The notes: generated by a model from the letters alone, not told the origin. 64,000 bases of DNA from an uncultured delta proteobacterium (GCA_963808235.1 CAWEEQ010000004.1:2304001-2368000), one strand, 5' to 3'. Positions 3,170-17,701 are shown, numbered from the stretch's first letter. Numbers and translations are program-made.

Positions 3170-4198
3170 ATGCGACTAGGCTTAATCACCGGTTATTCGG
3201 ACGCGCGGATGGGCTTGCCGATGGACACGATTCTCGAAGCCGAAAAAGCCGGCTTCGACTCGGTCTGGACCGCCGAGGCTTACGGCTCCGACGCGATCAC
3301 ACCGCTCGCGTGGATCGGCGCGCTTACCAAAAAGATTCGCCTCGGCACCGGTATCATGCAGATGCCCGCGCGCACCCCGGCAGCCACTGCGATGACCGCG
3401 ATGACGCTCGACGCGCTTTCCGGCGGACGCTTCATCCTCGGGATCGGACCGTCGGGGCCGCAGGTCGTAGAAGGATGGCACGGCGTGTCGTACGGCAAAC
3501 CGCTCCAGCGCACTCGCGAATATATTGAAATCGTGCGAACGATCCTTGCGCGCGAAGTTCCGCTCGAGCATCACGGCAAGGAATTCGACATCCCGTACAC
3601 CGGGCCGGGCGCCTCGGGCCTGGGCAAGCCGCTCAAGAGCATCCTGCACGGGCGCAAGGACATGCCGATCTACACCGCATCGATCAGTCCCAAGGGAATC
3701 GCGTTGGCGGCGGAAATCGCCGACGGCGTGATCCCAGTTTGGATGAATCCCGACCGGTGGGACATCTACGACGCGCCGGTTAAAGAAGGCTTCGCGAAAA
3801 GCGGCGGCCGCAAGAACATGGAGAATTTCGAAGTCGCGCCGTTCGTCACCTGCGTGATGGGCCCGGACCTCGAGAAATGCCGGATGCCGGTGAAGGGAAT
3901 GATGGCGCTTTATATCGGCGGGATGGGCGCGCGCAACAAAAATTTCTACAACGACTACGCCAAGCGTCTCGGCTACGAAAAAGAAGCGGTCCAGATCCAG
4001 GACCTGTTTCTTGCCGGCAAAAGGGCCGAGGCGATGGCGCTGGTGCCGGACAAGCTGGTCGACGAAGTCGCGCTGGTCGGGAACCGCGAGCGCATCGCGG
4101 ATCGTCTGAAGGCGTGGAAAGACTCGCCGGTCAAAACGATGTTGATCGGCACCGGCGACGTCAACACAGTCCGCGCCCTGGCGGAGATTTGTCTGTAG
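3170..4198 (+). CDS. LLM-class (probably F420-dependent) oxidoreductase
   Basis: WTAEAYGSD, LSGGRFILGIGPSGPQVVEGWHG, LYIGGMG...NFY. Confidence 0.9.
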   Translation: MRLGLITGYSDARMGLPMDTILEAEKAGFDSVWTAEAYGSDAITPLAWIGALTKKIRLGTGIMQMPARTPAATAMTAMTLDALSGGRFILGIGPSGPQVVEGWHGVSYGKPLQRTREYIEIVRTILAREVPLEHHGKEFDIPYTGPGASGLGKPLKSILHGRKDMPIYTASISPKGIALAAEIADGVIPVWMNPDRWDIYDAPVKEGFAKSGGRKNMENFEVAPFVTCVMGPDLEKCRMPVKGMMALYIGGMGARNKNFYNDYAKRLGYEKEAVQIQDLFLAGKRAEAMALVPDKLVDEVALVGNRERIADRLKAWKDSPVKTMLIGTGDVNTVRALAEICL

Positions 4199-8434: not shown

Positions 8435-9073
8435 ATGCGGGTAGGATTGTTCGGCGGCAGTTTCAATCCGATCCACTTCGGTCATCTTCGCGCGGCCGAG
8501 GAAGATCGAGAGGCGCTCGGCCTCGACCTCGTTTATTTCATTCCGGCCGCATCGCCGCCGCACAAAGCAGCCGGCGATCTCGCCCCGGCGGAGCATCGGC
8601 TCGCGATGGTGCGTCTGGCGACCAAGGGCAACCGCCACTTCATGGCGTCAGACGTCGAGATTCGGCGCTCGGGAAGCTCGTACACTATCGAGACGATTCG
8701 ATACTTCCTGGCGACGCTGCGGCAACCCGCGTCGCTGTACCTGTTGATGGGTGCGGATCAGTTTGCGGAGCTCGCCACTTGGAAAGATCCCGAAGAGCTG
8801 GTGCGCCTCGCGAATATCGCGGTTCACACACGATTCATACAGGGAGAATCGGGGCACCCGCGAATTTCGGTTGCCGCGCTGAAACGGTTTGGCTACACTC
8901 GGGAAGACGATCATTACGTGCATGCGAGCGGAACCACGCTTTCATTTGTCGAAACTACTTTCTTTCCAATCTCGGCCACTGAAATACGCGGCAAGCTGCA
9001 GCGGAACGAATCGATCAGGTATCTCATGCCGGCCGACGTGTTCGATTACGTTCAGCGTCACTCTCTCTATTGA
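8435..9073 (+). CDS. nadD: Nicotinate-nucleotide adenylyltransferase
   Basis: GGSFNPIHFGH, PPHK, SYTI, ISATEIR. Confidence 0.95.
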   Translation: MRVGLFGGSFNPIHFGHLRAAEEDREALGLDLVYFIPAASPPHKAAGDLAPAEHRLAMVRLATKGNRHFMASDVEIRRSGSSYTIETIRYFLATLRQPASLYLLMGADQFAELATWKDPEELVRLANIAVHTRFIQGESGHPRISVAALKRFGYTREDDHYVHASGTTLSFVETTFFPISATEIRGKLQRNESIRYLMPADVFDYVQRHSLY

Positions 9074-9167: not shown

Positions 9168-9557
9168 TTGAAAGCACTCGCGAAGGCATACGCCGCAGTC
9201 GAAGCGGCACTCGAAAAAAAAGCTTACGACCTGGTGGTGCTCGAGGCCGAGCATCTTAAACCCGTCGCCGACTACTTCCTGGTGGCGACCGGGCGATCCA
9301 ACGTGCAGGTGCAGGCGATCGCGCGCGGGATCGAGGAGCGGATGGGCAAGGCCGGGCAGCGGCCGCTCTCAGTCGAGGGGCTTCATCACGCGCATTGGGT
9401 CGTGCTCGACTACGATGACGTCGTGGTGCATCTTTTCTACGAGCCGGCACGTGAGTTCTATCGGCTCGAGCGGAATTGGATCGACGCGCGTGAAGTGAAA
9501 TTGCCGGAGCCGTTTCGCTCGCAGGCAGAGGGATTGAGAATCCGCGCGCTCGGCTAG
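9168..9557 (+). CDS. rsfS: Ribosome silencing factor
   Basis: KKAYD, DYFLVATG, WVVLDY.DVVVHLF, REFYRLE. Confidence 0.93.
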   Translation: MKALAKAYAAVEAALEKKAYDLVVLEAEHLKPVADYFLVATGRSNVQVQAIARGIEERMGKAGQRPLSVEGLHHAHWVVLDYDDVVVHLFYEPAREFYRLERNWIDAREVKLPEPFRSQAEGLRIRALG

Positions 9558-9793
9558 ACGCTGCGGACGGCGTGAGCGATTGCGACCAGGATCACCGCCC
9601 CAACCGTAGCAACCACCAAGGCGCCAAGGGCGCCGTTGGGACTGTGAATAGCAAGCTTCTCGAAGACCCATCTGCCGATGACGCCGCCGATCAGGCCGAG
9701 CACAAGATCGGCAATCAGCCCAAAGCCACGACCGCGCACCACCTTGCCGGCGAGCCACCCGGCCAGAATTCCGATTACGATCGCGCCTAGCAT
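9554..9793 (-). CDS. GlsB/YeaQ/YmgE family membrane protein
   Basis: Three Gly-rich TM segments, AGWLA, VATVGAVIL. Confidence 0.85.
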   Translation of the reverse strand: MLGAIVIGILAGWLAGKVVRGRGFGLIADLVLGLIGGVIGRWVFEKLAIHSPNGALGALVVATVGAVILVAIAHAVRSV

Positions 9794-9824
9794 CGGTGGT
9801 TCCCCCTGATTCGGCGGCTCGCGG

Positions 9825-9944
9825 CTACTTCTTTTGTTCCATCGGGACGCCGCAGCATTTCAACTGACCGGTTCCGGCCTTGGTGACGATGACCTGTGAG
9901 GCGCAATTTCCGCAGATATAAACTTTGCCGAGCTGGTTAGCCAT
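9825..9944 (-). CDS. Desulforedoxin-like mini-protein A (39 aa)
   Basis: MANQLGKVYICGNCASQVIVTKAGTGQLKCCGVPMEQKK with CxxC-x15-CC. AGGA RBS upstream. Confidence 0.85.
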   Translation of the reverse strand: MANQLGKVYICGNCASQVIVTKAGTGQLKCCGVPMEQKK

Positions 9945-9996
9945 TCTTAAATCCTGTCCTCTGTGTGCATTCTTGCACGAAAGCGTTTGCGAACGA

Positions 9997-10785
9997 TCAC
10001 GCGCCTCTGAATAGTGGTTTGCGCTTTTCCAGGAAAGCGCGCACGCCTTCGGCGCGGTCGGAAGTCGTTTGTAGCAGGGCGTATAGATCCTCCTCAAGTC
10101 TGATGCCCTGCTCCAACGTCATGTCGAAACCCTTCAGCACCGCGTCCTTGACCAGGCGGGTGGCAATTGGCGCGCGGCTCAAGATCGCCTCGGCGACGCG
10201 TCCACCCACTTGAGCCAGCTCGCCTCGACCTTTCGCGAGGTAGGTAACTAGACCGATGCGCATGGCCTCGTCGGCTCCCAGAGCCACTCCCGTGAGCATC
10301 ATTCGCAGCGCATTGCCGGCGCCGGCAAGCCGCGGCAAGCGCTGAGTAGCGCCGAAATGCGGCATCGCGCCGCGCTTCAAATGAGTGATCGCGAATCGGG
10401 CGCTTGAGATTGCGACGCGAATATCGGCCGCCAGGGCGAGTTCCAGGCCTTCGTCGAACGCGTCGCCGTTGATGATTGCGACGGTGGGCTTGGAAAGCAC
10501 GGCGAGCGACTCGACCAAGCGCGCATCCACGCCCGCGTCGAAGCCGACGCAAAAGGCGGCGCCGGCGCCGGTGATCGCGAGCACTCGCGCTTCGGGGTCG
10601 TCTTCGACTTGCTCGATCAGCTCGAGCATCCGCACTGCCATCGCGGGCGTCAGCTGCGCGCGCGCGCCCGCATGGCGAAGCGTCGCGGTGACGCACCGGC
10701 TTGCGAAGACGACTTCAACCGCGCCGCCCGAGGCGGTGGAGCGAGTGCGGCGACCCGAATCTTTTTTCGCGCGGCGGGGCGTCAG
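9997..10785 (-). CDS. Enoyl-CoA hydratase/isomerase family protein, degenerate (start uncertain)
   Basis: ITGAGAAFCVG, GLELALAADIR, GATQRLPRL, EGVRAFLEKR.P.F. The frame is open upstream of ATG 10641 to a CTG at 10785. Confidence 0.8.
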   Translation of the reverse strand: MTPRRAKKDSGRRTRSTASGGAVEVVFASRCVTATLRHAGARAQLTPAMAVRMLELIEQVEDDPEARVLAITGAGAAFCVGFDAGVDARLVESLAVLSKPTVAIINGDAFDEGLELALAADIRVAISSARFAITHLKRGAMPHFGATQRLPRLAGAGNALRMMLTGVALGADEAMRIGLVTYLAKGRGELAQVGGRVAEAILSRAPIATRLVKDAVLKGFDMTLEQGIRLEEDLYALLQTTSDRAEGVRAFLEKRKPLFRGA

Positions 10786-12329
10786 ATGCCTCCGGCCGGT
10801 GCGCGCAGATCCTTGCGCAGGATCTTGCCGAGCGGATTTTTAGGCAGCGCGTCGATGAATTCGATGCTCTCGGGGCGCTTGAAGCTGGCAAGGCGAGATC
10901 GACAGAATTCCGCGAGCTCGGGCTGGCTTAGCTTCTGCCCCTTGCGCGCGACGACGAACGCCTTAACGGTCTGCCCCCACTCGATCGAAGGCACGCCGAT
11001 AACGGCGCATTCGTCGACCGCTGGATGACTCATCAGGACGGTCTCGATTTCCGCGGGCGCGATATTCTCACCGCCGCGGATGATCATGTCGTCCTTGCGT
11101 CCGGCGAAAAACACGTAGCCGTCGTCGTCAAGCCATCCGAGGTCGCCGGTCGCGCGCCATCCGTCGGGCAATCGCGCGTCGTCCTCGCGGCCTGCGTATC
11201 CCTTCATGATGCGCGGGGTGCGGATTATTATTTCGCCGACCTGCCCGTGGGGGAGAAACTTTCCATCTTCGTCCCGCACCTGGATCTCGACGTCGGGCAG
11301 GGGCTTGCCGATCGAATTGAGACGCTTCAGCTTGAGTTCGATTTCCTTGGCCGTGCCTTCAAGGCGATGGTCATCGGGGCCGAGCACGGTCAGCGAGGAC
11401 GTGGTTTCGGTCTGCCCGTACGCGTTCACGAAGCCGACCTTTTTCGGGAAGACTTCGATCGCGCGGCGAATCACCTGCACCGGCATCGCGGCGCCGCCGT
11501 AGGCAAGATTCGTAAGACTCGCGAAGTCGGTCTTCGCAAACGATGGCTCGTCGATAATCTGCTTCATCATGGTGGGCACCACGAAAGCATGGGTGACGCG
11601 TTCGCGCTGGACGAGCTCGAGCCACGCCTTCGCGTCGAACTGCGGCATCACGATAACTTTGCGCCCCGTCCAGATGTTGGTCATGTACGCGGTGGTGCCG
11701 GCGATGTGGTAAAAAGGCACGCACACCAGCGCAACGCCGCGATCGGTGCCGTCGGCCATCTCGACGTTGGCGGTCACGTAGGCCGCGAAATCGCGAAAGC
11801 GCAGCATCACGCCCTTGGGCAGCGAGGTGGTGCCGCTGGTGTACATCAGGATCGAAATATCTTCGTCTTCGACTTCGGCCTCGGAATCGTCGGGCTCGGC
11901 CTTCGCGACGAGATCCGCGAGCCGCACCATCCCTTTCGCGCCGTTGCCCAGCGCGACGATCTTGTCGAGCTTGAGCCGCGGCTGAATCCTGGCGATCAGA
12001 TCGAGATAGCGATCGCCGACAATCAGAACCTTCGCGTCGGCGGTGTTGATCATGTACTCGAGCTCGTTATCTTTCGCGCGATAGTTGAGCGGCAGGAAAG
12101 TCAGGCCAGCCTTGGCGGCGCCGTAGTAGCACTCGATGTAAAGATCGGAATTGGTGTCGAGCACCGCGATGACATCGCGCGGCTTGAGACCGAACTGTTT
12201 GAAGACGGTGCTCAGGCGCGCGACTCGATCGTTCAGCTCAGCATAAGTGAGCCGCGCCGCGCCGAAGACCAGGATCTCCTGCTCGGGCACGATCGACGCA
12301 GGGATCGTTACGAAGTTAACCGTGTTCAC
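10782..12329 (-). CDS. Acyl-CoA synthetase (AMP-forming, long-chain-fatty-acid-CoA ligase type)
   Basis: YTSGTTSLPKG, YGQTE, TGDLG, GRKDDMIIRGGENI, LPKNPLGK. Confidence 0.93.
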   Translation of the reverse strand: MNTVNFVTIPASIVPEQEILVFGAARLTYAELNDRVARLSTVFKQFGLKPRDVIAVLDTNSDLYIECYYGAAKAGLTFLPLNYRAKDNELEYMINTADAKVLIVGDRYLDLIARIQPRLKLDKIVALGNGAKGMVRLADLVAKAEPDDSEAEVEDEDISILMYTSGTTSLPKGVMLRFRDFAAYVTANVEMADGTDRGVALVCVPFYHIAGTTAYMTNIWTGRKVIVMPQFDAKAWLELVQRERVTHAFVVPTMMKQIIDEPSFAKTDFASLTNLAYGGAAMPVQVIRRAIEVFPKKVGFVNAYGQTETTSSLTVLGPDDHRLEGTAKEIELKLKRLNSIGKPLPDVEIQVRDEDGKFLPHGQVGEIIIRTPRIMKGYAGREDDARLPDGWRATGDLGWLDDDGYVFFAGRKDDMIIRGGENIAPAEIETVLMSHPAVDECAVIGVPSIEWGQTVKAFVVARKGQKLSQPELAEFCRSRLASFKRPESIEFIDALPKNPLGKILRKDLRAPAGGI

Positions 12330-13121
12330 TTAGGCGAGATTCCTCCCGGACGCCGGCATTTTCCGAGGCCTGGCCCGGCGGCGATTGTCGCGCGAATTTA
12401 TGTTCTCAAATCGTTTCGCGAGGCGCTGTTCGAGTTCGAGTCCCTCCCGCAGAGGCAGATCGAGCCCTTCCCACACCGCCAGCTTGAGCATCGCGGCCTG
12501 CTCACGGGCGACTCCGCCAAGCTCGCGTGCAATGGTGAGAGCGCGTGCATCCAACTCTGCCAAGGGAACCACTTCGGCGACCAAACCTACAAGTAACGCG
12601 TCTTGGGCGTCAATCCAACGGCCGGTGAGACAGAGATCTAGCGCGCGCCCGAGGCCGAGACGACGCGCGGCGGTCTGAGTGCCGGCGACTCCGGGAATCA
12701 TCCCGGCGCCGGTTTCGGGCAAGGAAATTCGAGTGTCGTCAGCGGCTATCGCAACGTCGCACAGCAGCGCCATCTCGAGTCCTCCGCCGACTGTGTAGCC
12801 GTGGATTGCGGCGACGGTCGGTATCGGCAGCGCTCGCATCATGCCCCAAACGTCGCGGCGAAAGCGCACCCATCGCGCAACGATCGGCGACGGCGCCATC
12901 CCGAATTCCGCGAGATCGCCGCCGGTCGAGAACGCTTTGCCGGCGCCGCGCAGTACCATCGCGCGGACCGTGGAGTCCTCGTGAACCGCGGCGAGGATTT
13001 GAAACAGCTCGTCGCGCATCGCCATGTTGTAGGCGTTGAACTGATCGGGGCGATTGAGCGTGACCCACGCTACCGCGCCGCGCTTGGCGTACAGCACCGC
13101 ACTGGAACCGTTTGAAGACAT
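12330..13121 (-). CDS. Enoyl-CoA hydratase/isomerase family protein
   Basis: VTLNRP, AFSTGGDL, GGGLE, PE. Both catalytic Glu positions are present. Confidence 0.9.
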   Translation of the reverse strand: MSSNGSSAVLYAKRGAVAWVTLNRPDQFNAYNMAMRDELFQILAAVHEDSTVRAMVLRGAGKAFSTGGDLAEFGMAPSPIVARWVRFRRDVWGMMRALPIPTVAAIHGYTVGGGLEMALLCDVAIAADDTRISLPETGAGMIPGVAGTQTAARRLGLGRALDLCLTGRWIDAQDALLVGLVAEVVPLAELDARALTIARELGGVAREQAAMLKLAVWEGLDLPLREGLELEQRLAKRFENINSRDNRRRARPRKMPASGRNLA

Positions 13122-14680
13122 CAGCCCGAATGCAAGTCTGCGCTGTCGCTGCTCGCGATAGCGGGACGGCCGCGCTCATAAACAACGCGCCCGCCGACGA
13201 TAGTTATATCGACCGCGAGGTTCATCAGGTCGGCGGGCGGGAGCGAAAACGGGTCGCGCGGGAGAACGATCAGGTCGGCGACGCGGCCGGGTTCGATCGA
13301 GCCGGCGGCGACTTGCCCGAGATGCGCGGCGTCAGTCGTGAAGAGCGCGAACGCATCGGTGATCGAAAGCGCCTCGGCGGGCGCAAGCTCGAGGCCCTCG
13401 AGCGTGGTGCGTGATACCGCGGACGCAATCGCGGCAAGCGGCCTGGCAGGCGTAACCGGCGCGTCGGTAGCCCCCGCAAGATGCACTCCCGCGGCTTTGA
13501 GGCTTCGCGCGCGGTAGAGATGTGCGATCAGGCCGCCCTCTTCGGCGTACTTCGCGCCGCGAAAATGAATGAAGCCGGGATTGGTGACGACCCAGGAATT
13601 CATCGCGGCGAGCCGGTCGATATAGTTGGGCGGGATCAGTCCGCCATGCTCGATGCGAAACCGCGGAATCTCGTTTCGGCCGGCGTATCCTGCCTTTGCG
13701 GTTTCAATAGCGGCCAGCGCTTCTTCCAGTTCCTCGACCTCGGTCACATGAAATGCGCAATCGAGTCCGCGCGCCAGCGCGATTCCAACAGGACGCGAAA
13801 GGCCGGCGCGATCGTACTGATAGCCGGGCATGAACTTGACTCCGGCGAGCCTGATTCCCGCGGCGCCCGCGATCTGTTCGCATCGCTCGGCGGTTTCGAG
13901 ATGCTGCCCGCCGATCATCACGCCAACGTGCTGGCAAATTGCGCCCGACTGCGAAAGCTTCGCGAACAGTTCGACCTCGAAGAGACCGTTGCGAGTGGTC
14001 GCGTCGGTGAAGTTCGTCACGCCGGCCGCGGCCAATTCCCGGCTCATGATTCGCGCGCGCGATTCGGACTCCGCCGCGGTCACGGGCGGAAGATGCTGCG
14101 AGAGCCAGGTTTCCATGCCGACAACCAGGCCGGTCAACTTTCCGGCCGCGTCGCGAACCATGTTGGCACCGACGGGCTGCATGAAATCAGGAGCCTCGAG
14201 ACCGAGCAGCGCGATCGCGCGCGAGTTGAGCCACGTCGCGTGTAGCGTCTGATGTTTGAGTCGCAGCGGATTCTTCGGCACCGAATGATCGAGCTCGGCG
14301 CGCGTCAGCCCGCGCTTGTCGAGCATCAGCGCCTCATCGCATCCGAACGCGCGCAGCCAGTTTCCCGGCGGAGTCTTGCCGGCGGCGATTCGCAAATCGG
14401 CAAGCACGTCGCCAACCGCGCGGCATCGCTGCACAGAAATTCCCGTCGCGGCCGCAGCCGCTTCCAGAAAATGCAGATGCGAATCGATGAAGCCCGGCGC
14501 AACGGCGCGGCCCCCGAGTTTCAGCAGATGAGTTTGCGGTCCGACCAGCGGTTTTATTTCCGCGAATCTGCCCTGCGCGATGATTTGTCCGGCCGCGATT
14601 GCAATCGAGTCGACCCCCGGATGCCCGAGGACAAGACCTTCGTGCACAACCAGGTCGGCTTTCCCGGGGGCGGCGTCCAC
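13121..14680 (-). CDS. Amidohydrolase family 3 (YtcJ-like)
   Basis: PGFIDSHLH, RIEHG, ATDAPV, GSIEPGRVADL, GGRVVY. Confidence 0.88.
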   Translation of the reverse strand: MDAAPGKADLVVHEGLVLGHPGVDSIAIAAGQIIAQGRFAEIKPLVGPQTHLLKLGGRAVAPGFIDSHLHFLEAAAAATGISVQRCRAVGDVLADLRIAAGKTPPGNWLRAFGCDEALMLDKRGLTRAELDHSVPKNPLRLKHQTLHATWLNSRAIALLGLEAPDFMQPVGANMVRDAAGKLTGLVVGMETWLSQHLPPVTAAESESRARIMSRELAAAGVTNFTDATTRNGLFEVELFAKLSQSGAICQHVGVMIGGQHLETAERCEQIAGAAGIRLAGVKFMPGYQYDRAGLSRPVGIALARGLDCAFHVTEVEELEEALAAIETAKAGYAGRNEIPRFRIEHGGLIPPNYIDRLAAMNSWVVTNPGFIHFRGAKYAEEGGLIAHLYRARSLKAAGVHLAGATDAPVTPARPLAAIASAVSRTTLEGLELAPAEALSITDAFALFTTDAAHLGQVAAGSIEPGRVADLIVLPRDPFSLPPADLMNLAVDITIVGGRVVYERGRPAIASSDSADLHSG

Positions 14681-14734
14681 GTCGAATCGTTCACCTTCAC
14701 CGCCTGCGCCGATGCGCGGCAGCGTTTCGATTTC

Positions 14735-14878
14735 CTAGTCGGAAGACGGAAGCGGCTTCGCTTCCTTGATTTTCATTTCGTTATCGCAACACTGCAGACC
14801 GCCGGGGCCGGCCTTGTTGCAGAGCACTTCGGTGCCGCATTTTTCGCACATGTAACGCTTGCCGAGTACGTTTGCCAT
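14735..14878 (-). CDS. Desulforedoxin-like mini-protein B (47 aa; absent from ORF track)
   Basis: Manually translated: MANVLGKRYMCEKCGTEVLCNKAGPGGLQCCDNEMKIKEAKPLPSSD*. CxxC-x15-CC, AGGAG RBS upstream. Confidence 0.85.
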   Translation of the reverse strand: MANVLGKRYMCEKCGTEVLCNKAGPGGLQCCDNEMKIKEAKPLPSSD

Positions 14879-14935
14879 CTGGTCCGCTCCTGAAATCAGG
14901 CGATAAGCGCCTTTTGAGTAACTTAAAGTATCACT

Positions 14936-15934
14936 TCAATCTTGGCTGAACGGCAAATCGGTCACGATCGCGCTGCCGTCCGCATCGACTTTCAATTCGG
15001 TTCCCGGCCGCCAGGCGCTGTGATGCAAAATTGCGAGTCCGATCGCACCCAATCGCGGCGAGCGAGTCGCGCTGCTCACCCGCCCGACTTCCTTGCCTTC
15101 GAGACTCAAGCCCGCGCCAAGCCTCCGCGATTCTTTAAACTTGAGTCCGAACATCCGTTTTTTCAAGCCGCCGCGCGCAGTCGCCCGCTCGATAGTTTCC
15201 TGCCCGAGGTAGCATCCCTTGTTCAGCGAGATCGCGCGATCGAGCCGCGCCTCGAGCGCGATCGTTTTGTCGAAGGTGTCGACGCCGACGCGCGCGACTC
15301 CATTCTCGATTCGTATCGCTTCGAGCACTGCGGAATCGATTCTGCGCGAATTCGGTATCGAGGTCAGAAGTTTGCCGACAATCGTGTCTACCTGCGCGCG
15401 CGGGGCAATAATCGATGCTGCAGGCGCGCCGAAGCGCGGCAGGTTCGCGACTCGAAGATCGCCGGTGAGCACCGCGCGCCACGCGGCAAGCGAACCCGCA
15501 TCGTCGCCACCCACGATGCGCGCCGCGTCATGCGCCTTTGGACCTTCGACATCGATAACCGACAAGTCCGGGCCGTCTTCGAATTCGACATCATCGGCAA
15601 CCAGCAGGCGCTCGAGATGCGCCCGCGCGCGCGCCCACGCGTCGGCGTCGATATCCAGAATGAGCGCGTCGTCGGTTACCCAGACGAACAAGTCGGCGAT
15701 CACGTGCGCGTGCTCGGTCAGAAACAGCGCCGGCAGGACCGAACCGGGCTTGGCGCCCTTGATATCCGCACTGGACGTGCCGTGAAAGAACGACACGCGA
15801 TCGTCGCCGACCACGCGCACCACCGTTCGGCCGTCGAGTATGCGAACGCCCACCGCCTTGATGACCGCATCGTAATCAGCGTCGAAGGCGGCCGCAGCGG
15901 AGCCGCGCTCGGGTGTCATTTCAAGATGGCCCAT
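14936..15934 (-). CDS. ygfZ: YgfZ/GcvT-family folate-binding protein
   Basis: Signature KGCYLGQE. Confidence 0.88.
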   Translation of the reverse strand: MGHLEMTPERGSAAAAFDADYDAVIKAVGVRILDGRTVVRVVGDDRVSFFHGTSSADIKGAKPGSVLPALFLTEHAHVIADLFVWVTDDALILDIDADAWARARAHLERLLVADDVEFEDGPDLSVIDVEGPKAHDAARIVGGDDAGSLAAWRAVLTGDLRVANLPRFGAPAASIIAPRAQVDTIVGKLLTSIPNSRRIDSAVLEAIRIENGVARVGVDTFDKTIALEARLDRAISLNKGCYLGQETIERATARGGLKKRMFGLKFKESRRLGAGLSLEGKEVGRVSSATRSPRLGAIGLAILHHSAWRPGTELKVDADGSAIVTDLPFSQD

Positions 15935-16052
15935 ATCAGGATCACGATACTAGAAAGTGGCTGTCTTGCGTACCGCAATGCGCTCATATTCTCGGTTTCA
16001 TTTACGTCGTACAATTTGAATATAATCATGCGTTCCCGAAGGAGCCAAAAAT

Positions 16053-16190
16053 ATGGGCGCATTCATCCTCGGTCTGATTGTCGGCGTCGGCGGCGCGCTG
16101 GCGCTCTTCATCTACGATGAGGGTGATTTGTTTTTGAAGCTCTCCCGTCAAATTAAGCAAACGGCGGAACGCTACAAGCAAACGCCGTAG
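16053..16190 (+). CDS. Small single-TM membrane protein (45 aa; absent from ORF track)
   Basis: MGAFILGLIVGVGGALALFIYDEGDLFLKLSRQIKQTAERYKQTP*. AAGGAG RBS, TATAAT at 16021. Confidence 0.7.
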   Translation: MGAFILGLIVGVGGALALFIYDEGDLFLKLSRQIKQTAERYKQTP

Positions 16191-16210
16191 GAGGGGCAGA
16201 CTTAAGCCGC

Positions 16211-17701
16211 GTGATCAGAGGGATCGCGCATCCAGGGCGCGGTAGTACGCACCGCCGCCGCTTCTTTGCTTCCGCAGCCGGGGCGCTGTTGGCATTTGTG
16301 CTCACCCTGGGAGCTGCGCCGCGTTGTTACGCAGACGATGCGAGCACGCAGGCCCTGCAGTTGAGCGATCACGCATTCGCGATGCTCAACGCGATAAACG
16401 CTTCCGCCGCCGCCGGCAAGCCTGGACCGATACTCGAACCCGCGGCAAGCCTGGCCGGCGACGCGCAGACGCTTTCGACCGCGCTCGGCGCGCACGACAA
16501 CGCGGCGGCGAGCAGCGCGATGGCCGCGGTGCTTGGCGACCGCGACCGAATCGAAGCGGCTGCGAAGGTTGCGGGCGGAGGCTATCCGGAAGAGTGGACC
16601 AGCATAAGAGAAAAAATCGCGGCGCTCGAAAAGGCGGTGCCCGCTGCCAAAGGCTCGACTGCATCCGCGATGCACGCTCTGATACCGGCCGTCTCGGTCG
16701 CTCCGCCGGCGGGTGAGAAATTGCCTGCCGCGCCAACCGTCTCGATCGGGTCGCGGGTCTTCAAGGGCGATGCGGTTCGGGTCAGGGGATATTTGGAAGG
16801 CACCGATTTGAAGTCGGCCGGGATTTTCGATGCCGACCAGAAGAGCAAGGACATCGAGGTCGCATCGACGCCCGGCGAGCAGCGAATCAATTTCGACTTC
16901 ACGATCCAGCAGCCGTCGCAGACGCAATCGATTCGCGTCGCTGACGCGTACGGACGCGAAGCAAGCGCGATGATCGCGCCAGACCCTGCGGGCGTCGGCG
17001 CCATGAAGGGCGACGAGGAATTGATCGAGGTCGAGCCGAGTGCCGGGTCTTCATCAGGCATGGCTAGTGCCGAGCCTGACGATCGGCTCGCGTCAGCAGG
17101 TCCCGCGGGGGGCAACAATACCGCGGAGATTCCGCGCAGCACCGATGCGCTCTCGCCGTCCCGTCGTCATATTGACGAAAGCCGCAATCTCGAGCCGTTA
17201 ACGAACGTGCAGATCAACGTGCTCGACGCCGAAGAACTCATGTCGGCTCCCGGGATGGTACAGGTAGTCGGGCAAATCGCCGGACCGGGCGTGCTCCGCG
17301 CGGGCGTGTACGTCAACGGCAAGCTCGCCAAACCGATTCCTGTCAGCGCCGGCGGCTACAGCTCCTTCGACGTGACGTTTCCGATGCCGCCTGGCAGCGA
17401 CGCGCGAATTCGCGCCTACGGCAACGGCAACTCTTTCGTGGAAGCGTCGATCGATACCGTCAGCGGAGGCGCCGGGATAACGGAGTACCGCAATCCTCCG
17501 ATGTACACTTATCCGGGGTCGCCATATTACGCGCCAAATCCGTACGCCTACGCCAATCCCTATGCACCCGGCTACAATCCTTACGCGCCAAATCCTTATG
17601 GATACGCGCCCGGCTACGGACCGCCACCCTACGGCACGCCTTACTACGGCACCCCGCCACCCACCGCGAACAAGCCGTGGTACAGCAAGCTGTTCCATTG
17701 A
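16211..17701 (+). CDS. Exported hypothetical protein with two similar beta-domains and a Tyr/Pro-rich tail
   Basis: RRRFF + hydrophobic signal, long coding-like ORF, C-terminal YAPNPY-type repeats. Confidence 0.75.
   Translation: MIRGIAHPGRGSTHRRRFFASAAGALLAFVLTLGAAPRCYADDASTQALQLSDHAFAMLNAINASAAAGKPGPILEPAASLAGDAQTLSTALGAHDNAAASSAMAAVLGDRDRIEAAAKVAGGGYPEEWTSIREKIAALEKAVPAAKGSTASAMHALIPAVSVAPPAGEKLPAAPTVSIGSRVFKGDAVRVRGYLEGTDLKSAGIFDADQKSKDIEVASTPGEQRINFDFTIQQPSQTQSIRVADAYGREASAMIAPDPAGVGAMKGDEELIEVEPSAGSSSGMASAEPDDRLASAGPAGGNNTAEIPRSTDALSPSRRHIDESRNLEPLTNVQINVLDAEELMSAPGMVQVVGQIAGPGVLRAGVYVNGKLAKPIPVSAGGYSSFDVTFPMPPGSDARIRAYGNGNSFVEASIDTVSGGAGITEYRNPPMYTYPGSPYYAPNPYAYANPYAPGYNPYAPNPYGYAPGYGPPPYGTPYYGTPPPTANKPWYSKLFH

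Follow-up and report, generated by a model that had tools for sequence, protein, structure and literature searches.

Within a 64,000-nucleotide window of DNA from an uncultured delta proteobacterium (GCA_963808235.1, CAWEEQ010000004.1:2304001-2368000; part of a 4.59-Mb Binataceae genome that is 92.95% complete), an operon for coenzyme A (CoA) ester metabolism is bracketed by two genes for very small proteins, here called miniA and miniB. Both are real genes. The A and B proteins belong with each other and with a single clade of acyl-CoA ligases of the ANL type, to which they are linked and with which they co-occur; in many of their relatives the metal ligands have been lost. The explanation that we favor, giving it a little short of an even chance, is that the A/B pair would serve as a two-part, non-catalytic partner with the desulforedoxin fold for an acyl-CoA-forming enzyme, chiefly for this ligase clade, and would help it in the manner of the MbtH-like proteins, to which it is unrelated.

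The mini-proteins are two diverged halves of one protein

The mini-proteins are paralogues, with 19 of 39 residues identical (49%, E 4e-12), and both contain C11-x2-C14 ... C30-C31, the CxxC-x15-CC pattern of desulforedoxin. In this respect the sequence-only reading of the window, an earlier interpretation made without database searches, had described them correctly. Both align to desulfoferrodoxin and desulforedoxin without gaps. The Pfam model PF06397 matched miniA with 31.0 bits, above its cut-off of 23, and miniB with 20.5 bits (E 3.7e-4), below it; TIGR00319 matched miniA with 28.5 bits, below the cut-off of 36.05. A profile of the mini-protein family found 1vzg (E 9.3e-5) and 1cfw (E 1.9e-4), again with no gaps. 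A Pfam scan of both mini-proteins and 12 relatives gave only PF06397 and chance zinc-ribbon matches. In the whole genome PF06397 matches miniA and miniB alone, and PF01880, the superoxide reductase domain, has no match in the 92.95%-complete genome, which bears out the earlier remark that this domain is lacking.

Close relatives of miniB form 127 clusters at 68-94% identity, and a miniB-specific pattern is present in 322 species-level genomes, the best 80 of which were used for the analysis of loci. Since the pattern used on genome contigs is specific to the miniB of Binataceae, the loci kept are those of Binataceae only, and all 80 are of the Binataceae type. The ratio of nonsynonymous to synonymous substitution rates (dN/dS) was 0.080 for miniB (80 sequences), 0.110 for miniA (59 sequences) and 0.106 for the ligase. 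Across these loci the mini-proteins are 83-96% identical, compared with 56-90% for the amidohydrolase of the same operon, and are among the best conserved products of the operon. We conclude that miniA and miniB are under purifying selection; dN/dS and conservation exclude chance open reading frames as an explanation.

A profile search of 1.84 billion representatives returned 1329 proteins at E <= 0.001, including 255 at E <= 1e-10. Architectures and tails were counted in the best 150 of these matches. Many of the 150 are 95-110 residues long, contain two matched stretches fused in the order A-B and end in [KR]PLP[SA]SD (P0121, P0133 and P0134 are among them). The sequence-only reading had named actinobacterial two-repeat proteins ending in KPLP(S/A)SD as the fused form and had suggested that A-B fusions be sought; such fusions do exist, and in number. 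The tail lies at the extreme C-terminus in 118 of the 150 representatives, occurs as a close variant in 3 more and is internal in only 1. Its C-terminal Asp is invariant in three separate alignments, and the residue preceding P-L-P is K or R. Where the halves are not fused, they are usually encoded in tandem with A first, as seen in nearly all loci of a metagenome set (80 loci, one sub-group only) that had enough upstream sequence, and in 6 loci of families elsewhere in the phylum. MiniA and miniB are thus the separately encoded halves of one two-domain protein, of modeled desulforedoxin fold, that elsewhere occurs mostly as a tandem A-B pair or a fusion, and the fusions and tandem genes support a heterodimer.

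A third architecture was also seen, in which a helical N-terminal domain of about 60 residues (no family assigned) precedes a tail-bearing B, without an A half (P0191, P0195, P0196, P0202, P0222, P0246 and others; also G148:C8:241760-241894). Apparent fusions of miniB to the amidohydrolase (P0122, P0131, P0132) were rejected as frameshifted public gene calls, which turn part-way into arginine-rich nonsense. The cysteine-poor fused forms had no Pfam or NCBIfam match and are annotated as 'hypothetical protein' in public records; no curated family covers the fused forms. Full-text literature searches on the mini-protein family found nothing relevant.

Many relatives have lost the metal ligands

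In this genome both halves carry a four-cysteine site and hence probably bind Fe or Zn. CxxC...CC is complete in the B half of 58 of the 118 tail-bearing representatives; another 30 have a substitution at one ligand, and the remaining 30 have lost most of the ligands. A group of 24 cysteine-poor fusions lack all four cysteines in the B half and have at most two in the A half, and G-K-R, K-x-G and L-P-x-x-D are invariant in the same 24 proteins. The residues conserved specifically in this family, namely GKR, K-x-G and the tail, are not metal ligands.

The fold was modeled on two relatives, P0200 and P0133, rather than on the window's own mini-proteins. The AlphaFold2 model of the cysteine-poor fusion P0200 had a mean predicted local distance difference test score (pLDDT) of 94.1 and a predicted template modeling score (pTM) of 0.82, and its B half (residues 60-95) superposed with all 36 residues on desulforedoxin 1cfw_A at 1.1 A (Z 3.4), a better match than any other among 48,161 chains. 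The cysteine-rich fusion P0133 was modeled with a pLDDT of 83.0. A Foldseek search of the PDB with this model gave nothing at E <= 0.001; its top rows were immunoglobulin-like noise, and the only meaningful local matches, at E > 1, were 1dxg_A (probability 0.92, target-normalized TM 0.88) and 2ji1_A. As judged from these models, the fold of the family is that of desulforedoxin. Because GKR(Y), K-x-G and the C-terminal Asp persist in many tail-bearing relatives whose metal ligands have been lost, the redox center is not the conserved function of the mini-proteins; the metal, as we read it, would be a structural and dispensable element.

The mini-proteins are linked to an acyl-CoA ligase

A plasmid search with the fused protein P0200 matched 19 records, from Rhodococcus, Streptomyces, Mycobacterium, Sphingobium and Sphingomonas, and nine contexts were examined. 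In eight of them the fused gene directly adjoins, on the same strand, a gene annotated as 'class I adenylate-forming enzyme' or 'fatty acid-CoA ligase'. In the metagenome set, 57 loci could be assessed (at least 400 nt upstream), and in 40 of these a full-length orthologue of the window ligase (47-60% identity) ends within 400 nt upstream of the mini-proteins, on the same strand and usually preceded by a crotonase. The co-occurrence with AMP-binding genes, which the sequence-only reading had suggested scoring, is seen in both the plasmid and the metagenome contexts. Since a genome of this size has about ten ANL genes, we put the probability of a fortuitous adjacency at well below one percent; this is our own estimate and not a computed test.

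Of 8 loci from other families of the phylum, 4 show the order ECH2-ECH1-ligase-A-B (ECH1 and ECH2 being the two crotonases of the operon), their proteins being 42-48% identical to those of the window, and a fifth has ligase-A with an A-B pair further along. In Binataceae, ligase and miniA were present in 51 of the 56 loci with at least 7.8 kb of downstream sequence. The operon is split in the other five; there miniA lies elsewhere, still directly after ECH2 (5/5) and the ligase (4/5, the fifth contig being too short). Inside a single family, synteny says little about function.

A sample of 201 genomes of the phylum was then considered as a whole. A ligase match of at least 516 bits (at least 48% identity) was present in 10 of them, and in the remainder no match exceeded 408 bits. 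All 10 genomes with a close ligase orthologue fall among the 12 that hold a tail-bearing B, and the holders of tail-bearing B are spread over at least 8 families. In one of the remaining two genomes the contig stops just after miniA, and in the other (G157) a CoA-transferase occupies the position of the ligase. Most other profile matches in the 201 genomes, covering positions 9 to about 40 in frames of about 130 residues, are probably ordinary desulfoferrodoxins.

One locus, L188 (G075:C2), has two copies of miniA, at 1737-1853 and 3879-3995. One directly follows a ligase; the other heads an A-B pair that is followed by NMO-like and acyl-CoA dehydrogenase genes. A divergent two-subunit CoA-transferase lies between the two copies.

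The associated ligases share an insertion

The window ligase matched NF004837/PRK06187 with 481.8 bits (cut-off 476) and shows the motifs YTSGTTSLPKG, YGQTE, GRKDDMIIRGGENI and PLGKI. Its closest solved structures are 8weu/8wev and FadD13 (3r44). When the eight plasmid ligases encoded beside fused mini-proteins were compared with the 10 ANL paralogues of the window genome (G000), the best match was the window ligase in 8/8 cases, at 36-41% identity and 308-371 bits, while the next paralogue reached at most 142 bits. An insertion of 12-13 residues after motif A5 (GP[ED]DHR ... [KR]RL) is common to all 15 mini-protein-associated ligases aligned, and it is lacking in 8weu, 8wev and 3r44 as well as in the 8 further G000 paralogues that were aligned. 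These alignments indicate that the ligases next to the mini-proteins form one orthologous clade, marked by the insertion.

A possible role as ligase partner, and the points against it

How such a partner might work can be outlined. The A/B pseudo-dimer would dock on the ligase, and the clade-specific insertion that follows motif A5 is a possible site. The flexible, invariant tail of B (...KPLPSSD, with a free C-terminal Asp) could then reach into the ligase or into the next enzyme and act as an activator or adaptor, much as MbtH-like proteins do with adenylation domains. The tail would be the functional contact and the metal a dispensable structural element.

The complex of ligase and miniB was also predicted. 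The inputs were the ligase (28-row alignment), ATP, Fe and miniB (35-row alignment). The complex scored 0.53 (runs 0.59, 0.53 and 0.51), compared with 0.01 for the best of three controls; the runs agreed in at least 87% of contacts, and the pLDDT of the partner was at least 78. In calibration, 116 of 157 solved complexes and 2 of 215 mismatched pairs passed the score mark, and scores of 0.60 or below held only 18 of the 157 solved complexes together with both passing mismatches; these counts serve only as a rough guide here, because our own alignments and riding small molecules were used.

Several observations weigh against a dedicated ligase partner. The complex prediction, made for the ligase with miniB, returned no interface and lends weak support. 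In the five Binataceae genomes with a split operon, miniB stays with the YgfZ-like and amidohydrolase genes, followed by unrelated housekeeping genes, far from the ligase. A plasmid of Rhodococcus gordoniae has hydrolases and FAD oxidoreductases as neighbors of the fused gene and no ligase within 4 kb. In the metagenome set, 17 of the 57 assessable loci have no ligase, and 7 of these 17 have a CoA-transferase upstream (PF01144 in six, PF02515 in one). G157 has the order ECH2-ECH1-CoA-transferase alpha/beta-A-B-MBL-NMO (MBL, metallo-beta-lactamase), with the transferase exactly at the position of the ligase. In G148, the form that joins the N-terminal domain to B is unlinked to the ligase orthologue of that genome. 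Finally, genomes and loci within one lineage are kin, so that the counts given here overstate independence. Replacement of the ligase by a CoA-transferase is not expected of a strictly ANL-specific partner, and the ligase specificity of the mini-proteins is not absolute.

The sequence-only reading had taken the two mini-proteins for a heterodimeric accessory of the ligase, acting either as a chaperone or activator or as an electron carrier. The first part gains from the fusions and tandem genes, from ligase adjacency and co-occurrence and, weakly, from the complex prediction. The second part is weakened, as set out below.

Other pathway components as the partner

The rival that survives best, although we judge it unlikely, is that the pair would be an adaptor of another component of the pathway (the crotonase pair, the hydrolase, or the NMO-like or MBL-fold enzyme encoded after B), or would bind the CoA or acid substrate, possibly through the invariant basic residues of GKR(Y)/K-x-G. 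Linkage to the ligase would then reflect a shared pathway. This would account for the CoA-transferase that replaces the ligase, with A-B retained, in G157 and in seven metagenome loci, and for miniB staying with the amidohydrolase when the operon is split. Orthologues of ECH1 and ECH2 travel with the pair across families, those of ECH1 (42-48% identity) lying beside a ligase or a CoA-transferase in other families of the phylum.

The gene after B bears on this explanation from both sides. In Binataceae the amidohydrolase begins within 300 nt downstream of miniB in all 77 assessable loci. In the metagenome group (counts from loci L102-L156), the gene after B is Hist_deacetyl in 9 loci, a TPR protein followed by NMO or CoA-transferase in 11, an alpha/beta hydrolase in 2 and a protein of MBL fold in 3; CoA-transferase III was also seen. 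Hydrolase-type genes thus recur directly after B in several lineages (Amidohydro_3, Hist_deacetyl, alpha/beta hydrolase and MBL fold, the last also in G157), and for this reason we still consider that the pair may serve the step that follows CoA activation, or that the tail may act like a carrier. Against an adaptor of these components, the gene after B varies widely, the ligase is the sole constant neighbor in the actinobacterial and sphingomonad contexts, and no crotonase lies within 4 kb in L085, L086, L087 and L091. The strict co-occurrence of the ligase clade with tail-bearing B in the phylum sample, the clade-specific insertion and, weakly, the score of ligase and miniB over the controls also point to the ligase.

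The same variation affects the amide-to-acyl-CoA pathway that the sequence-only reading had proposed for the operon. Amidohydro_3 is constant only in Binataceae and the gene after B is varied elsewhere, so that such a pathway is possible for Binataceae and is not a property of the family.

The tail as a site of chemistry

Distinctly less probable is that B would be a carrier or scaffold resembling LysW or the scaffolds of ribosomally synthesized and post-translationally modified peptides (RiPPs). The chemistry would take place on the tail, ...SSD: the ANL enzyme would either adenylate its terminal Asp or load an acyl group on it, pathway enzymes would act on the tethered group, and the amidohydrolase would release the product. 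The position of the tail at the C-terminus in 118 of 150 representatives and its invariant terminal Asp fit this idea. So does the anatomy, since a small ribbon-type domain with a flexible, conserved acidic tail resembles LysW, and the genes that flank B encode a ligase that uses ATP and a metal-dependent hydrolase of amides (Amidohydro_3 in the window, Hist_deacetyl in 9 of the metagenome loci). The swap of ligase for CoA-transferase is hard to square with adenylation of a protein C-terminus, however, and the crotonases, CoA-transferases and acyl-CoA dehydrogenases nearby are ordinary enzymes of free CoA esters. Moreover, the hydrolase is not constant, the complex prediction gave no interface placing the tail in an active site, and the K or R before P-L-P argues against lysine acylation at that position. 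For the tail itself, a fuller version of this scheme, to which we give slightly less credence again, would make it the working part of a new protein carrier or scaffold, with the terminal Asp loaded by the ligase clade through its insertion, processed by the variant crotonase ECH2 and released by the hydrolase, that is, a LysW- or RiPP-like logic in CoA metabolism.

Electron transfer and regulation

A classical electron carrier of the desulforedoxin type, in which electrons would go from an Fe(Cys)4 heterodimer to one of the oxidoreductases of the pathway, is a poor candidate. The complete CxxC-x15-CC in both window mini-proteins speaks for it, as do their matches to PF06397, desulfoferrodoxin and desulforedoxin, and ferredoxins, acyl-CoA dehydrogenases and NMO-like flavoenzymes are found in some neighborhoods. 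Yet all four cysteines remain in fewer than half of the tail-bearing B halves, the other conserved features being kept where ligands are replaced or lost, as they are in the 24 cysteine-poor fusions, one of which folds confidently in prediction. No oxidoreductase is a constant neighbor, no superoxide reductase domain was found in the genome, and GKR, K-x-G and the tail are not ligands of a metal.

Last in our estimation are small regulatory zinc-ribbon proteins, acting as a post-translational switch or sensor for the operon or for acylation of the ligase: AcuC-type deacetylases regulate acyl-CoA synthetases, a Hist_deacetyl (AcuC-type) gene follows B in 9 metagenome loci and TetR or GntR regulators are frequent neighbors, but the mini-proteins have no DNA-binding domain and lie inside tightly spaced catabolic operons, the deacetylase-like neighbor is limited to part of one lineage, and a subunit would better explain why A and B are fused and why they co-occur strictly with one clade of enzymes.

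Organization of the operon and its surroundings

The minus-strand order miniB - Amidohydro_3 - ECH1 - ANL ligase - ECH2 - miniA, together with the gene sizes and the overlapping or abutting inner genes, is confirmed by the window coordinates (Table 1), as first read from the sequence. The amidohydrolase and ECH1 genes share 1 nt, ECH1 directly adjoins the ligase, and miniB and miniA are each separated from their respective neighbor by 52-54 nt. A Shine-Dalgarno-like AGGAG lies 8 nt before the ATG of miniB and AGGA 7 nt before that of miniA. A promoter scan of 9500-16300 found 1 candidate compared with a shuffle mean of 1.4, and nothing stood above the shuffles.

Table 1. Coordinates of the operon and adjoining features, counted from the first nucleotide of the window.
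Feature	Position	Strand	Description
YgfZ/GcvT-like folate-binding protein	14936-15934	-	PF01571, PF08669; TIGR03317 75 bits (cut-off 49)
miniB	14735-14878	-	47 aa; mini-protein of modeled desulforedoxin fold; tail-bearing B half, ends in KPLPSSD
Amidohydro_3 metal-dependent hydrolase	13121-14680	-	519 aa; PF07969 3.4e-60, 205.3 bits
ECH1, canonical crotonase / enoyl-CoA hydratase	12330-13121	-	263 aa; PF00378 5.1e-52; both catalytic Glu
ANL acyl-CoA ligase	10782-12329	-	515 aa; PF00501 1.1e-82, PF13193 1.6e-22
Clade-specific ligase insertion after motif A5	11322-11378	-	residues ~318-336, GPDDHR...KRL
ECH2, variant crotonase	9997-10785 including conserved N-terminus; first ATG 10641	-	PF00378 4.3e-38
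miniA	9825-9944	-	39 aa; mini-protein of modeled desulforedoxin fold; A half, no tail, ends in EQKK

The amidohydrolase contains the motif SHLHF (an HxH metal motif), and its closest solved relatives, 3igh and 3icj, are uncharacterized hydrolases. In ECH1 the motifs GGGLE and LPE were seen in the alignment. ECH2, called a degenerate crotonase by the sequence-only reading, does have the crotonase fold, yet it is not decayed: it is conserved and longer than the frame that starts at the ATG. In all 8 sequences aligned (window, L025, L082, L182-L185, L187) the first catalytic Glu is retained and His or Gln takes the place of the second, so that ECH2 is a conserved variant crotonase and probably not a simple hydratase. 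The PF00378 match starts at profile position 28. About 48 codons upstream of the first ATG (10641-10785) are open and conserved in frame and hold none of the codons ATG, GTG and TTG. At the head of the ECH2 N-terminus, a CTG shares nucleotides with the ligase stop (CTGA); the alignment places the Met of L033, L052 and L054 at this codon, which suggests either a CTG start or termination-reinitiation coupling. In L022, ligase and ECH2 lie within one open frame. In this locus and in L023 and L055, all three of the Binataceae type, the amidohydrolase and ECH1 are separated by an additional stretch of about 2.6 kb (~9750-12400 in L022).

YgfZ/CAF17-like folate-binding proteins are a family of Fe-S cluster maintenance. 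Such a gene ends within 300 nt upstream of miniB in all 79 assessable Binataceae loci; a functional link to it was rejected as unsupported, the synteny being confined to Binataceae and the gene not lying beside the pair in the 8 loci of other families. Outside the operon, on its other side, are ordinary genes for a NadD-like nucleotidyltransferase at 8435-9073 (+), the ribosome silencing factor RsfS at 9168-9557 (+) and a 79-residue Transgly_assoc membrane protein (GlsB/YeaQ-type) at 9554-9793 (-), the synteny of which is kept in most Binataceae loci.

Comparison with known systems

The closest structural counterparts are desulforedoxin of Desulfovibrio gigas (1dxg/1cfw) and the center-I domain of desulfoferrodoxin (PF06397; 1vzg, 2ji1), which have the same CxxC-x15-CC domain of about 36 residues. 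Desulforedoxin works as a dimer, and two domains acting together would be a further likeness. Whereas desulforedoxin is a homodimer, the mini-proteins are a hetero-pair or a fusion of two diverged halves, with a tail on B. The desulforedoxin alignment has no counterpart of their invariant GKR(Y), K-x-G and C-terminal ...PLPS(S/A)D, the metal ligands are dispensable in many members, and the setting is an aerobic-type acyl-CoA operon.

In working mode, though not in family, the pair may be compared with the MbtH-like proteins, which are small, conserved, non-catalytic partners of adenylation domains of nonribosomal peptide synthetases (NRPSs) and are encoded alongside them. In both cases the gene of a small protein lies next to that of an adenylate-forming enzyme, and the two co-occur. 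The sequences are unrelated and the folds differ; the putative partner here is a stand-alone ANL enzyme of the CoA-ligase type and not an NRPS adenylation domain, the mini-proteins have two halves and a C-terminal tail, and a CoA-transferase can replace the ligase.

LysW is a small ribbon-type metal-binding globule with an EDWGE-type acidic C-terminal tail that works with an ATP-grasp ligase (LysX-type). The mini-proteins resemble it as a metal-binding ribbon globule with an acidic tail, and also in their operon partners, a ligase that uses ATP and a metal-dependent hydrolase of amides. They differ in the tail (PLPSSD) and in the ligase, which is of the ANL and not the ATP-grasp type (none is encoded in the operon), and the surrounding enzymes act on CoA esters.

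One report describes LvaB of Pseudomonas putida as a 12-kDa hypothetical protein that is needed with the 4-hydroxyvaleryl-CoA kinase LvaA and is encoded in an operon that includes an acyl-CoA synthetase (PMC6692424). As portrayed there, LvaB is likewise a small protein needed with a CoA-ester enzyme, and it is the only published analogue that we met. LvaB adjoins the kinase, whereas the mini-proteins adjoin the ligase. Phosphotransferase-family genes lie near 3 of the 9 plasmid contexts of the fused form.

To our knowledge, acyl-CoA ligases, which have been much studied in lipid and xenobiotic breakdown, are thought to work alone. The ligase clade described here is found in Binatia, other Desulfobacterota, Actinomycetota and sphingomonads, and almost never without a two-part mini-protein that annotation pipelines have missed or called 'hypothetical'. 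If the mini-proteins are an obligate partner, failed heterologous expression and the uncertain substrates of this clade may have a simple cause. They would then be a second dedicated helper of adenylating enzymes, after the MbtH-like proteins, and an example of a redox-protein fold re-used as a metal-optional structural module.

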